64,000 bases of DNA, from the sequence record LR746311; one strand, 5' to 3'. Under the pieces are notes generated by a model. It made no database searches and was not told the DNA's origin. It saw nothing but the letters and a program-made list of their open reading frames with translations. The position numbers and the translations under genes were made by a program. The DNA is from Shigella phage vB_SsoM_113. This document shows positions 25,940-37,779 of this stretch, one piece after another. Every line of letters starts with the position of its first letter. Positions within the stretch are counted from its first letter, which is position 1.

Positions 25940-26255
25940 TATTCGTCCGGTCGATGAGACCGGTCTTTCAGAAAAAGAACTTTCAATTAAGAAAGAAAAG
26001 GATGAAATTGCAAAGCTTCTTGACCGCCAAGAAAATGGATTTATTATTGAAAAAATGGTAGAAGAGTTTGGAATGAGTTATCTTGAAGCTACAACAGCAT
26101 TCTTAGAAGAAAATTCTATTCCTGAAACTCAATTTGCTAAATTTATTCCTTCGGGTATAATTGAAAAAATTCAGTCAGAAGCTATTGACGAAAATCTTTT
26201 ACGTCCTTCTGTTGTTCGTTGTGAAAAAACTAATACATTAGATTTTCTACTATGA
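25917..26255 (+). CDS. 33: late transcription co-activator gp33
   Basis: 112 aa from ATG 25917, acidic, conserved position. Confidence 0.7.
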   Translation: MTQFSLNDIRPVDETGLSEKELSIKKEKDEIAKLLDRQENGFIIEKMVEEFGMSYLEATTAFLEENSIPETQFAKFIPSGIIEKIQSEAIDENLLRPSVVRCEKTNTLDFLL

Positions 26256-26905
26256 TTAAACTCCGCATGCCTGCTGGTGGTGAAAGATACATTGATGGTA
26301 AATCAGTTTATAAATTATACTTAATGATAAAACAACATATGAATGGAAAGTATGATGTAATTAAGTATAATTGGTGCATGCGGGTGTCTGATGCCGCTTA
26401 TCAAAAGCGAAGGGATAAGTATTTTTTCCAGAAGTTATCAGAAAAATATAAATTAAAGGAACTTGCTTTAATCTTTATAAGCAATCTTGTTGCTAACCAA
26501 GATGCTTGGATTGGTGACATCTCTGACGCTGATGCACTTGTGTTTTATCGTGAATATATCGGACGCTTAAAGCAAATTAAATTTAAGTTTGAAGAAGATA
26601 TTCGCAACATTTATTATTTTAGTAAAAAAGTTGAAGTTTCTGCTTTTAAAGAAATCTTTGAGTATAATCCAAAAGTCCAATCAAGTTATATTTTTAAACT
26701 ACTTCAATCGAATATAATTTCGTTTGAGACGTTTATCTTGCTTGATTCGTTTTTAAATATAATCGATAAACATGATGAACAGACTGATAATTTAGTCTGG
26801 AATAATTATTCTATAAAGTTAAAGGCTTATAGAAAAATTTTAAATATTGATTCACAGAAAGCCAAAAGTGTTTTTATTGAAACTGTGAAATCTTGCAAGT
26901 ATTAA
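26252..26905 (+). CDS. 59: helicase loader gp59
   Basis: 217 aa (same as T4 gp59), immediately upstream of the gene 32 region. Confidence 0.75.
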   Translation: MIKLRMPAGGERYIDGKSVYKLYLMIKQHMNGKYDVIKYNWCMRVSDAAYQKRRDKYFFQKLSEKYKLKELALIFISNLVANQDAWIGDISDADALVFYREYIGRLKQIKFKFEEDIRNIYYFSKKVEVSAFKEIFEYNPKVQSSYIFKLLQSNIISFETFILLDSFLNIIDKHDEQTDNLVWNNYSIKLKAYRKILNIDSQKAKSVFIETVKSCKY

Positions 26906-26906
26906 T

Positions 26907-27539
26907 ATGAATATAGTATATTGGTTTACATTTGAAGACCGTGTCAAAAATAAGACTCCGCCATACTACTATATCGGTAGTAAATTAAATTGCTCATTTG
27001 AGAACGGAATAATATATGACTCTTCCGGAAAGGAATACTGGAGCTCATGTAAACAAAAAAGATTTTTGAATGCGGTAATGCTTCAAAAACCGAGCGTTAA
27101 AATAATTCAAATTGATGATGACTTGGATGTTATTGAAGCAGAACGAAAATACCAACTTGAAGTAAATGCCAGAGATAATCCAGATTATTTCAATCTGGTA
27201 TATGCTGGTGGTGGATTTGGTGTGAGTGGTGAAACTCATCCAGCCAAAGACCCGGAAGTTAGAGAGCATATGAGATTGGCTAATTATATGAACCGTGACG
27301 ATTTTAGACCTTGGAAAACATCACGAGCTAATATAGAGTCTTGGAAATTATCTCATATTGCTTACGAGAATTATGTGTTATTATTATCCTCTAATCTTTA
27401 CGGTAAAACTCCTGGATGGCGAAGAGTTAAAGGTAATATAAATATAACTGATACAACTGCTAAATCGATGGTAAAGTATTTCAACTCAGGTTGGATACCT
27501 CTCGAAGACCCAGAGTATTGCGAATTATGCCAGCTATGA
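26907..27539 (+). CDS. GIY-YIG family homing endonuclease-like protein (Seg-like, possibly SegG-type)
   Basis: 210 aa; degenerate GIY..YIG pair near the N-terminus (IVYWF...PPYYYIGSK); free-standing ORF between genes 59 and 32. Confidence 0.5.
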   Translation: MNIVYWFTFEDRVKNKTPPYYYIGSKLNCSFENGIIYDSSGKEYWSSCKQKRFLNAVMLQKPSVKIIQIDDDLDVIEAERKYQLEVNARDNPDYFNLVYAGGGFGVSGETHPAKDPEVREHMRLANYMNRDDFRPWKTSRANIESWKLSHIAYENYVLLLSSNLYGKTPGWRRVKGNINITDTTAKSMVKYFNSGWIPLEDPEYCELCQL

Positions 27540-27588
27540 GGTAAAGTGTCATAGCACCAACTGTTAATTAAATTAAAAAGGAAATAAA
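27530..27588 (+). promoter_or_regulatory. gene 32 autoregulatory translational operator (pseudoknot plus AU-rich tract)
   Basis: gctatga-ggtaaagtg-tcatagc hairpin with downstream acc able to pair the loop, then ttaattaaattaaaaaggaaataaaATG. Confidence 0.6.
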
Positions 27589-28497
27589 ATGTTTAAACGT
27601 AAATCTACTGCTGAACTTGCTGCACAAATGGCTAAACTGAATGGCAATAAAGGTGGTTTTTCTTCTGAAGATAAAGGCGAGTGGAAACTGAAACTCGATA
27701 ATGCGGGTAACGGTCAAGCAGTAATTCGTTTTCTTCCGTCTAAAAATGATGAACAAGCACCATTCGCAATTCTTGTAAATCACGGTTTCAAGAAAAATGG
27801 TAAATGGTATATTGAAACATGTTCATCTACCCACGGTGATTACGATTCTTGTCCAGTATGTCAGTACATCAGTAAAAATGATTTGTACAATACTGACAAT
27901 AAAGAGTACGGTCTTGTTAAACGTAAAACTTCTTACTGGGCTAACATTCTTGTAGTAAAAGACCCGGCTGCTCCAGAAAATGAAGGTAAAGTATTTAAAT
28001 ACCGCTTCGGTAAGAAAATCTGGGATAAAATCAATGCAATGATTGCAGTTGATGTTGAAATGGGTGAAACTCCGGTTGATGTAACTTGTCCGTGGGAAGG
28101 TGCTAACTTTGTACTGAAAGTTAAACAAGTTTCTGGTTTTAGTAACTACGACGAATCTAAATTCCTGAATCAATCTGCGATTCCAAACATTGATGATGAA
28201 TCTTTCCAGAAAGAACTGTTCGAACAAATGGTTGACCTTTCTGAAATGACTTCTAAAGATAAATTCAAATCGTTTGAAGAACTGAGCACTAAATTCAGTC
28301 AAGTTATGGGAACTGCTGCTATGGGTGGTGCCGCAGCGACTGCCGCTAAGAAAGCTGATAAAGTTGCTGATGATTTGGATGCATTCAATGTTGACGACTT
28401 CAATACAAAAACTGAAGATGATTTTATGAGCTCAAGCTCCGGTAGTTCATCTAGTGCTGATGACACGGACCTGGATGACCTTTTGAATGACCTTTAA
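27589..28497 (+). CDS. 32: ssDNA-binding protein gp32
   Basis: 302 aa; [50 protein letters not shown]; acidic Ser/Asp C-terminus. Confidence 0.95.
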
Positions 28498-28519: not shown

Positions 28520-28546
28520 GGGGACCCTAGAGGTCCCCTTTTTTTA
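28520..28546 (+). terminator. rho-independent terminator after gene 32
   Basis: ggggaccc-tag-aggtcccc followed by tttttttatttt. Confidence 0.65.
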
Positions 28547-28643: not shown

Positions 28644-28871
28644 ATGGCTAAAGTTGATATTGACATCGTTGATTTTGAATATATTGAAGAAATTATTCGT
28701 AATCGTTATCCTGGACTTAGTATCACAAGCGTACAAGATTCTAAGTTTTGGAGTATTCAAATCGTTATTGAAGGTCCTCTTGAAGACCTCACTCGTTTTA
28801 TGGCTAATGAATATTGTGATGGTATGGATTCTGAAGACGCAGAATTTTACATGGGACTGATTGAACAATAA
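28644..28871 (+). CDS. hypothetical acidic protein (frd.x region)
   Basis: 75 aa from the ATG after the promoter; track ORF begins inside the promoter. Confidence 0.45.
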
Positions 28872-28915
28872 TTATCAAGGGGCTATAAAGCCCCTATTAA
28901 AATGAGGAAAACATA

Positions 28916-29296
28916 ATGTATATTGGCAAAAAGTATGAACTTGTTCCAAGACTTATTGATACATTTATTAATTATAGCCCACGATCCAACGCGTCAATAG
29001 TTAAAATTATTCGAGAAAATGGCGGGTGGTTTGAAGTTAAAGAAGTTTTCTTTGCTAATGGATTTAAAGCGGTAAAACACATTGAATGCGCTAATGGAAA
29101 GCATTTTTACCTTAAAGATAGACTTTTAGAAATTTGCGAAGATGAATTTCATTGTTTCCGTGAGTATAAAGAACCGACTTCTGAAGAAGATGAAATCGAA
29201 GACAAGGTTTCTGGCGTAACAAAAATTCACTGCATTGTTGACGAAAACAACGTAGACGAAATCATTGAACTTTTGCGAAAAACTTTTAAGGCCTAA
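28916..29296 (+). CDS. hypothetical protein (frd.x region)
   Basis: 126-aa ORF with RBS. Confidence 0.45.
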   Translation: MYIGKKYELVPRLIDTFINYSPRSNASIVKIIRENGGWFEVKEVFFANGFKAVKHIECANGKHFYLKDRLLEICEDEFHCFREYKEPTSEEDEIEDKVSGVTKIHCIVDENNVDEIIELLRKTFKA

Positions 29297-29297
29297 T

Positions 29298-29558
29298 ATG
29301 ACTAAAGATGATTTCCTGGATGCGGTAGAAAAAGCTAGTGAGAAATTTGAAGTGATGGGTGTACGGGTCCATAAAGACAGAAATTACGGACTCGATATTC
29401 AAACGTATTCGTTATGGCTTGTGGGTGAACACAGTCTTGTAACCAGTTTAGTTATGGGTGTCGATACCTATCCTCTATTGGTTAAGTTCAGAAGTATGGA
29501 AAAGGCTACTAAAGAAATGATTAAGCTTGGTAAGTGGCTCGATAAAATTCAAAAATAA
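29298..29558 (+). CDS. hypothetical protein (frd.x region)
   Basis: 86 aa from the ATG just after the upstream stop. Confidence 0.4.
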   Translation: MTKDDFLDAVEKASEKFEVMGVRVHKDRNYGLDIQTYSLWLVGEHSLVTSLVMGVDTYPLLVKFRSMEKATKEMIKLGKWLDKIQK

Positions 29559-29560
29559 TT

Positions 29561-29590
29561 GTTTACAACAGGCTATAGTAGTGATACTAT
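29561..29590 (+). promoter_or_regulatory. early promoter with palindromic spacer
   Basis: gtttac 29561-29566; ggctatagta...tactatagcc inverted repeat spans the -10. Confidence 0.5.
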
Positions 29591-29615
29591 AGCCTTATTA
29601 ACTAAGGAGAATAAA

Positions 29616-29858
29616 ATGAGATTACAACGTCAGAGCATTAAAGATTCAGAAGTTAGAGGTAAATGGTATTTTAATATCATCGGTAAAGATTCTGAACTTG
29701 TTGAAAAAGCTGAACGTCTTTTGCGTGATATGGGATGGGAAGATGAATGTGATGGATGCTCTCTTTATGAGGATGGAGAAAGCGCAGGATTCTGGATTTA
29801 TCATTCTGATGTTGATCAGTTTAAAGCTGATTGGAAAATTGTGAAAAAGTCTGTTTGA
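29616..29858 (+). CDS. hypothetical protein (frd.x region)
   Basis: 80 aa, AGGAGA RBS, Cys-rich acidic. Confidence 0.45.
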   Translation: MRLQRQSIKDSEVRGKWYFNIIGKDSELVEKAERLLRDMGWEDECDGCSLYEDGESAGFWIYHSDVDQFKADWKIVKKSV

Positions 29859-29868
29859 GAAAAATATT

Positions 29869-30224
29869 ATGTCTAACATTCATATAACTGGAATTACCCA
29901 AGTAAAAATTCGTTGCCAACTTAAAACCGCGCCTGGGACGGCTTTTATTAATTTATCACACGACATAGATTCCCGTGAAAGCCAGTTAATGGGTGTAATT
30001 ACATTTTACGCTGGATTTGGCGGAAACGAATTTACTGTAGGCGAAATTGTCGGCCGTAAATTAAAAGTTCAGAAGAACGTATTAGAACTTTTTAATGACC
30101 TTTACGATGATAGTGACGAAGTTTTTGATGAAATCGCGCAAGCAGTTAACAGAGGAATGGTAACTTTAGTTAAAATGATTGACGCTAGCGGATATGCTCA
30201 TGACCCTTTTCAATGGGAGATAAT

Positions 30225-30228
<4 letters not shown>
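29869..30228 (+). CDS. hypothetical protein (frd.x region)
   Basis: 119-aa ORF. Confidence 0.45.
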
Positions 30229-31256
<1,028 letters not shown>

Positions 31257-36164: not shown

Positions 36165-36169
36165 GGAGT

Positions 36170-36189
36170 GGGCCGCAAGGCCCATTTTA
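36170..36189 (+). terminator. stem-loop after nrdB
   Basis: gggccgcaaggccc followed by attttatt. Confidence 0.4.
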
Positions 36190-36191
36190 TT

Positions 36192-37779
<1,588 letters not shown>

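Follow-up and report, generated by a model that had tools for sequence, protein, structure and literature searches.

The segG gene of Shigella phage vB_SsoM_113, a free-standing homing endonuclease gene whose 3' end overlaps the gene 32 operator pseudoknot

In bacteriophage T4, segG is an active and mobile free-standing GIY-YIG endonuclease gene located between genes 32 and 59, and in phages that do not carry segG the target of its product is gene 32, as listed in a 2010 review of the T4 mobile elements (PMC2988022, Table 1). According to the same review, the promoter from which segG is transcribed is situated towards the 3' end of the gene upstream, the segG-32 transcript is processed by RNase E, and segG contains promoters of the essential gene 32, both middle and late, a situation which favours retention of the endonuclease (PMC2988022). 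In crosses between T4 and T2, SegG has been held responsible for excluding the gene 32 markers of T2 (PMC2330249). Borjac-Natour et al. (2004) pointed out that the segG frame is overlapped by the 5' part of the 28-nt gene 32 pseudoknot, and suggested that segG is a chimera, the frame of which was extended into the pseudoknot of the recipient (PMC535899). The UUAAA/UAAA elements of the operator have a role in the cooperative binding of gp32 (PMC535899).

The window analysed here is a stretch of 64,000 nt from Shigella phage vB_SsoM_113 (sequence record LR746311). As a whole, it corresponds to a mosaic Tequatrovirus and is 96-99% identical to many deposited genomes.

Identity and genomic setting of segG

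The initial annotation of this DNA had placed an ORF of 210 aa between genes 59 and 32, and both the coordinates and the flanks of this ORF were confirmed by the ORF list (Table 1). Its ATG is located one base past the gene 59 stop codon TAA (26903-26905), and gene 32 starts 49 nt past its TGA. At the base composition of the window (GC 0.357), a stop-free run of 210 codons is expected by chance with a probability of about 1.3e-7. The order gene 59, segG, gene 32 is that of T4 (NC_000866), and the terminator-like hairpin detected 3' of gene 32 is annotated as a terminator in phage SA20RB.

The alignment with T4 SegG (NP_049855), which the same annotation had proposed as a check, was clear-cut: 209 of the 210 residues are identical, without gaps (E 2e-164), and the two genes occupy the same locus position. 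The sole amino acid change is L57V; in the relatives, V, L and I occur at this position with about equal frequency. At the DNA level, segG is about 99% identical to its T4 counterpart, and an end-to-end match to phrog_7504, 'homing endonuclease', was obtained in PHROGs (E 1.9e-133). Furthermore, phages HY01 and PsgM02F encode a protein identical to that of the window, with 14 and 12 silent DNA differences, respectively. Judged by this degree of identity, the ORF is SegG itself.

Several other T4 mobile elements are absent from this phage (31245-32117, 32670-36164), and segG is kept. The td gene is one uninterrupted ORF over which the whole thymidylate synthase profile was matched; because td is uninterrupted, the window contains neither the td intron nor I-TevI. 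In the same way, nrdA and nrdB are uninterrupted in the window and adjacent, with a gap of 51 nt, and thus neither mobE nor the nrdB intron is present there. In pSe_SNUABM_01, the relative that comes closest in the segG region, td is split and an endonuclease gene lies inside it. The denA product of the window (EndoII, 36168-36602) was recognised as a GIY-YIG protein. Downstream of gene 32, the stretch leading to frd (28644-30470) looks variable: it holds six small ORFs, which correspond to FRD3, FRD2, a 97-aa ORF without match, DUF5417, DUF7247 and an 85-aa ORF without match, and T4 has three ORFs there.

Table 1. Features of the segG-gene 32 region (positions in the window)
Feature	Position	Strand	Basis
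Middle-promoter-like GCTT-N14-TATAAT, 3' end of gene 59	26740..26763	+	Motif scan; T4-type middle promoter at equivalent SA20RB position
Gene 59 (helicase loader), upstream neighbour	26252..26905	+	ORF list; T4 order
segG CDS, free-standing homing endonuclease, 210 aa	26907..27539	+	ORF list; T4 SegG identity; phrog_7504
N-terminal catalytic domain, aa 1-100, treated as a divergent GIY-YIG fold	26907..27206	+	Conserved Y5, R12, Y22-I23-G24-S25-K26, Y44, S47, E79, N96
Gly-rich flexible linker, ~aa 101-120	27207..27266	+	pLDDT 57-75; relatives diverge from here onward
C-terminal helical domain, ~aa 121-210, presumed DNA-binding	27267..27536	+	
Gene 32 middle-promoter-like GCTT-N15-TATTAT, inside segG	27360..27384	+	Motif scan; SA20RB promoter annotation at same position
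T4 late-promoter consensus TATAAATA, inside segG	27437..27444	+	Exact match; annotated at equivalent SA20RB position
Gene 32 operator pseudoknot, T4 type, 28 nt	27528..27555	+	Pairing, covariation, PMC535899
Unstructured part of the operator	27556..27588	+	UUAAA x2 (27568-77), Shine-Dalgarno AAGGAAA (27578-84), UAAA (27585-88)
Gene 32 (ssDNA-binding protein, 302 aa)	27589..28497	+	ORF list; T4 annotation
Dinucleotide CA (codon ACA, Thr), gene 32 nt 230-231	27818..27819	+	Linked to segG presence
Intrinsic-terminator-like hairpin 3' of gene 32	28520..28538	+	Scan: 7-bp stem, 6 GC pairs, T-run

The N-terminal domain of SegG

The N-terminus of the protein reads MNIVYWFTFEDRVKNKTPPYYYIGSK, that is M-N-I-V-Y followed at some distance by Y-Y-Y-I-G-S, and the degenerate GIY...YIG start (IVY / YYYIGS) described by the initial annotation is therefore present in the translation.

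Sequence profiles gave little for this domain. When the window SegG was scanned against Pfam and NCBIfam, no match was obtained at E<=10, and precomputed Pfam domains were found in none of 29 homologues. Searches of the PDB sequences, by phmmer and by hmmsearch with the family profile, returned chance-level matches only, and no nuclease among them. When the SegG family was compared by hhalign with I-TevI alone, its N-terminal domain remained without a match. After T4 SegA, B, D, E and F had been added to I-TevI, a weak match was obtained (probability 9.5%, pairwise E 0.0034), the register of which was nevertheless sensible, since YIGS was placed on YVGS and N96 on I-TevI N90.

A profile search against the GIY-YIG families had been proposed at the outset, with the lack of a hit taken as a refutation of the assignment. 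Formally, the Pfam and NCBIfam scans gave that very result, but the rule is too strict. T4 SegF is an experimentally established GIY-YIG homing endonuclease; nevertheless, no Pfam match was found for it at E<=0.01 (locus L021:1607-2281), whereas matches were obtained for SegA, B, D, E and I-TevI. Because the proven SegF likewise goes without a Pfam match, the same miss is not diagnostic for SegG. For genes of this kind, 'no Pfam hit' should not be equated with 'not a nuclease', as the curated profiles miss both SegG and SegF.

In the AlphaFold model, built with 26 homologues, the mean pLDDT is 91 and residues 1-100 are modelled at 92-98; a GIY-YIG-like alpha/beta fold is seen in this model. 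When the model was compared with the PDB by Foldseek, I-TevI was ranked first, at a level that is not significant (E 1.1). Among the predicted viral structures of BFVD, 27 matches were found at E<=1e-3, and these include proteins annotated as Seg-like, GIY-YIG domain-containing or NUMOD3-bearing endonucleases.

Relatives were collected with a profile covering the first 108 residues (E<=1e-3), which retrieved 294 representative proteins; the domain is N-terminal in nearly all of them, and their total lengths vary. When the best 146 of these 294 relatives were examined with Pfam, 86 had NUMOD3 motifs, 10 matched SegE_GIY-YIG PF19835 (best 3.3e-4) and one matched GIY-YIG PF01541 (1.4e-3). In the same 146 relatives, Y5, Y22, I23, G24, K26, Y44, S47, E79 and N96 are 95-100% conserved, conservation being at least 98% for Y5, Y22, G24, K26, Y44, S47, E79 and N96. 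Y5 (144/144) and the Y-I-G tripeptide (Y22 in 146/147, I23 and G24 in 147/147) lie on the adjacent beta-strands 2-8 and 21-26 of the model. E79 is found in 140 of 141 relatives and is carried by helix 75-85, its register relative to I-TevI E75 being uncertain by two residues; N96 is present in 141 of 142.

In the founding GIY-YIG members, the connector between the two motifs has 10-11 residues, and in I-TevI the glutamate, the asparagine and the helix arginine are E75, N90 and R27. In SegG, the Tyr-Tyr connector comprises 16 residues and forms a short helix with the conserved R12. No clear equivalent of I-TevI R27 was located, and no arginine of T4 SegA-E was aligned at that place either (MAFFT). 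R52 is present on helix 51-59, where R or K occurs in 9% of the relatives; the conserved basic residues of the relatives are R12 (89%) and K26 (99%). The catalytic Arg and Glu positions, on which the assignment had also been made to depend, thus gave a split answer: the glutamate is there as the near-invariant E79, accompanied by N96, and the canonical helix arginine has no located counterpart. It is a possibility that the SegG-type N-terminal domain, with its 294 clusters, constitutes a GIY-YIG subclass which is largely missed by the Pfam and NCBIfam profiles, and that in this subclass the basic residue is re-wired, R12 or K26 replacing the helix arginine.

The gene 32 operator and the promoters inside segG

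The region upstream of gene 32 has, by its sequence, the features of a gene 32 translational operator, namely an H-type pseudoknot upstream of a repeat-rich tract. Stem 1 (4 bp) pairs UGCC (27528-31) with GGUA (27540-43), and stem 2 (7 bp) pairs GCUAUGA (27533-39) with UCAUAGC (27549-55); loop 1 is A (27532) and loop 2 is AAGUG (27544-48). Stem 2 was found in the minimum-free-energy fold. When the pairs of four pseudoknot types were listed from arms defined by hand, every stem pair was standard, and compensatory changes were present in both stems (four sequence types, three genera). In Rfam, the gene 32 operator is not represented by any family and chance-level matches only were obtained, and a scan of IMG/VR with the exact pseudoknot pattern found two contigs only, too few for statistics.

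It had been noticed beforehand that the segG stop codon falls in the 5' arm gctatga, and this is the case: the TGA (27537-27539) is the end of GCTATGA (27533-27539), the heptamer that pairs with TCATAGC (27549-27555). What had been called a tight packing against the operator is in fact a true overlap, larger than stated, as TGCC (27528-27531) and the loop A (27532) are also coding. The last four segG codons and the stop codon make up 12 nt of the 28-nt pseudoknot, to which they supply loop 1 and the 5' arms of both stems.

Upstream of this overlap, the gene 32 middle-promoter-like motif and the late-promoter consensus both lie inside the segG frame (Table 1), and the middle-promoter-like motif at the 3' end of gene 59 is likely, from its sequence and position, the source of segG-containing transcripts. 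A scan for sigma-70 promoters was uninformative here (14 sites for 11.6 expected). Since its 3' half holds middle as well as late promoters of gene 32, and since its last codons and stop form the 5' arms of the pseudoknot on which gp32 nucleates when it represses its own translation, segG is hard to lose.

Twenty loci were compared, 11 carrying segG and nine from Tequatroviruses without it (L006-L008, L015-L020). The type of pseudoknot tracks segG: the T4 type was present in 11 of 11 carriers, and the T2 type, with UGACC/GGUCA as stem 1 and UACAUCG as loop 2, in all nine segG-less loci. Joint inheritance of the element with the 5' arm of stem 1 would produce such tracking. The nine segG-less spacers that come after gene 59 are about 99 nt long and contain a compact MotA-box/late-promoter block and the T2-type pseudoknot. 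Between the T4 and T2 types, stem 1 shows one compensatory change (G-C to U-A) and one one-sided change (A-U to G-U); in Potts1 (Marfavirus) and LHE83 (Dhakavirus), more compensatory changes were seen, in both stems. The TAAATT unit of the downstream tract occurs once in the window, in all nine segG-less phages, in HY01 and in others, twice in T4 and three times in SA20RB. Its variation is an ordinary length polymorphism, given these counts among the 20 loci. The A-run before the AUG has 3 or 4 residues among T4-type phages. In Kelasse, which lacks segG, the run before the Shine-Dalgarno sequence is one A shorter.

Within gene 32, nt 230-231 are CA in 11 of 11 segG-carrying loci and AC, giving an Asn codon, in 7 of 9 segG-less ones; the dinucleotide (27818-27819) directly precedes the Cys of a gp32 motif. 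This association may reflect linkage through co-conversion, or it may be a candidate SegG-resistance polymorphism. Gene 32 positions 52, 53 and 57 seemed segG-specific in six phages and failed when more phages were included. These gene 32 comparisons were made on MAFFT alignments, as T4 gene 32 has one codon fewer.

The position of the stop codon inside stem 2 raises the idea that SegG translation and gp32 repression might be mutually exclusive on one polycistronic mRNA, because a ribosome ending SegG synthesis would have to unwind the structure on which gp32 nucleates. We regard this coupling as unlikely. If it were true, SegG output would be tied to the level of free gp32, or gene 32 would be transiently de-repressed; the coupling would moreover be specific to T4-type phages, because the SegG-like genes of Potts1 and LHE83 end upstream of the pseudoknot. 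A literature search of limited reach found no earlier test of a SegG/gp32 coupling.

Activity, homing and relation to known systems

Taking these data together, we consider that the segG of this phage is an intact free-standing GIY-YIG homing endonuclease gene which is almost certainly active (probability about 0.93). The initial annotation had left its catalytic competence in doubt. From the sequence alone this was reasonable; the doubt is answered by the published activity of the near-identical T4 SegG (PMC2988022, PMC2330249), and we infer that the one-residue variant L57V would behave like the T4 protein. In a set of nine full-length segG alleles, polymorphism is synonymous at 19 codons and non-synonymous at 4, which argues for purifying selection on the protein itself, beyond any constraint from the promoters or RNA within the gene. 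Of about 480 close phage records (at least 95% identity), about 140-150 carry segG, and the others have a 99-nt spacer between genes 59 and 32. Such a patchy distribution is typical of a homing element.

During a mixed infection, SegG would make a site-specific double-strand break in gene 32 of a relative that lacks segG. The break would be located a few hundred bases from the segG insertion point, a distance that we take to be roughly 330 bp. It would then be repaired by recombination, with the segG-carrying genome as template, and the repair would carry segG into the recipient, together with the operator and the 5' portion of gene 32 (intronless homing). In this way, homing would keep the gene 32 markers of the recipient out of the progeny.

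Two other readings of the locus have to be weighed against an active endonuclease. The element could be domesticated and frozen, the ORF being retained only for the promoters of gene 32 and the pseudoknot half that it contains, and the protein having lost its nuclease function. As the ORF includes the promoter motifs and 12 pseudoknot nucleotides, loss of segG would indeed be harmful whatever the protein does, and decayed copies are known elsewhere: segG is cut to 64 aa in an IMG/VR contig, and the VR7 homologue is shortened, with C-terminal remnants in the spacer. In the window, however, the whole 210-codon frame is intact and all the residues conserved across the family are present. Furthermore, a constraint exerted by promoters and RNA in the 3' part would not produce the ratio of 19 to 4 codons across the N-terminal domain, and the near-identical T4 SegG is active and mobile (PMC2988022, PMC2330249). 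A frozen element is therefore very improbable.

Still less credible is the reading in which the N-terminal domain would be no GIY-YIG nuclease and would adopt an unrelated fold, with IVY and YIG tripeptides that occur by chance. Such a view draws on the missing Pfam and NCBIfam matches, on the lack of a PDB sequence match, on the weakness of the hhalign and Foldseek results (E 1.1 for the PDB), and on the unusual 16-residue connector together with a helix Arg that is not identifiable. On the other side stand the order and the structural context of the conserved residues (strand-Tyr, strand-TyrIleGly, helix-Glu, Asn), which fit the GIY-YIG family, and we regard the domain as a divergent member of this family.

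The endonuclease gene retained here is real but ordinary, as the gene, its activity, the embedded promoters and the pseudoknot overlap are all already in print. The locus adds little that is new: it is that of a T4-type phage with a textbook selfish element. It nevertheless illustrates clearly how a homing endonuclease gene becomes bound up with an essential gene, through the promoters and regulatory RNA of the latter, and this entanglement protects the endonuclease gene against deletion.

The closest described system is T4 SegG (formerly ORF 32.1), with which the window gene shares the length of 210 aa, the slot between genes 59 and 32, the stop codon inside a pseudoknot arm and the T4-type pseudoknot itself. 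The window differs from T4 by L57V, a conservative change common to HY01, PsgM02F and pSe_SNUABM_01, by the gene 59 stop codon (TAA, in contrast to TGA in T4), and by an operator tract that is 6 nt shorter, with one TAAATT unit less and one A less before the AUG. In its general plan, the operator is that of the T-even gene 32, an H-type pseudoknot with stems of 4 and 7 bp, downstream of which lie the UUAAA/UAAA repeats and the ribosome-binding site. The unstructured tract of the window (33 nt) is of the short form found in the segG-less T2-type phages, whereas it measures 39 nt in T4 and 44 nt in SA20RB.

With T4 SegA-SegF and I-TevI, the likeness resides in the layout, an N-terminal catalytic domain followed by a C-terminal DNA-binding domain, and in the order Tyr, Tyr-Ile-Gly, Glu, Asn; I-TevI is the best structural match of the model, and the Y-x-G-S that follows YIG in SegG (Y44, S47) resembles the 'GYMGSG' of SegA-E. 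In contrast to these proteins, the sequence similarity of SegG is below Pfam/HMMER detection, its connector is longer, and YIG is followed by an inserted beta-hairpin (residues 30-37). Its C-terminal domain is helical and HTH-like, whereas that of I-TevI consists of a zinc finger and NUMOD modules.

The SegG-like genes of Klebsiella phage Potts1 and of Escherichia phages LHE83 and VR7 occupy the same gene 59-32 slot and share the conserved N-terminal domain (for example MNIVYW..RxxNKTPPYYYIGSK), and in these phages, as in the window, a pseudoknot with covarying stems is found upstream of gene 32. Their C-terminal domains differ from that of the window SegG. The VR7 copy has 182 aa, and Cys/His zinc-finger-like C-terminal remnants lie in its 187-nt spacer, which suggests a decayed gene. 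In the metagenomic T4-type contig IMGVR_UViG_3300045988_128797, segG stops after 64 codons and the T4-type pseudoknot is kept; from its sequence, this copy appears to be degenerate. In Potts1 and LHE83, the frames end upstream of the pseudoknot-like element of the spacer and do not overlap it, unlike in the window. The overlap between stop codon and pseudoknot is thus particular to the T4-type element, which fits the chimera proposed by Borjac-Natour et al. (PMC535899).
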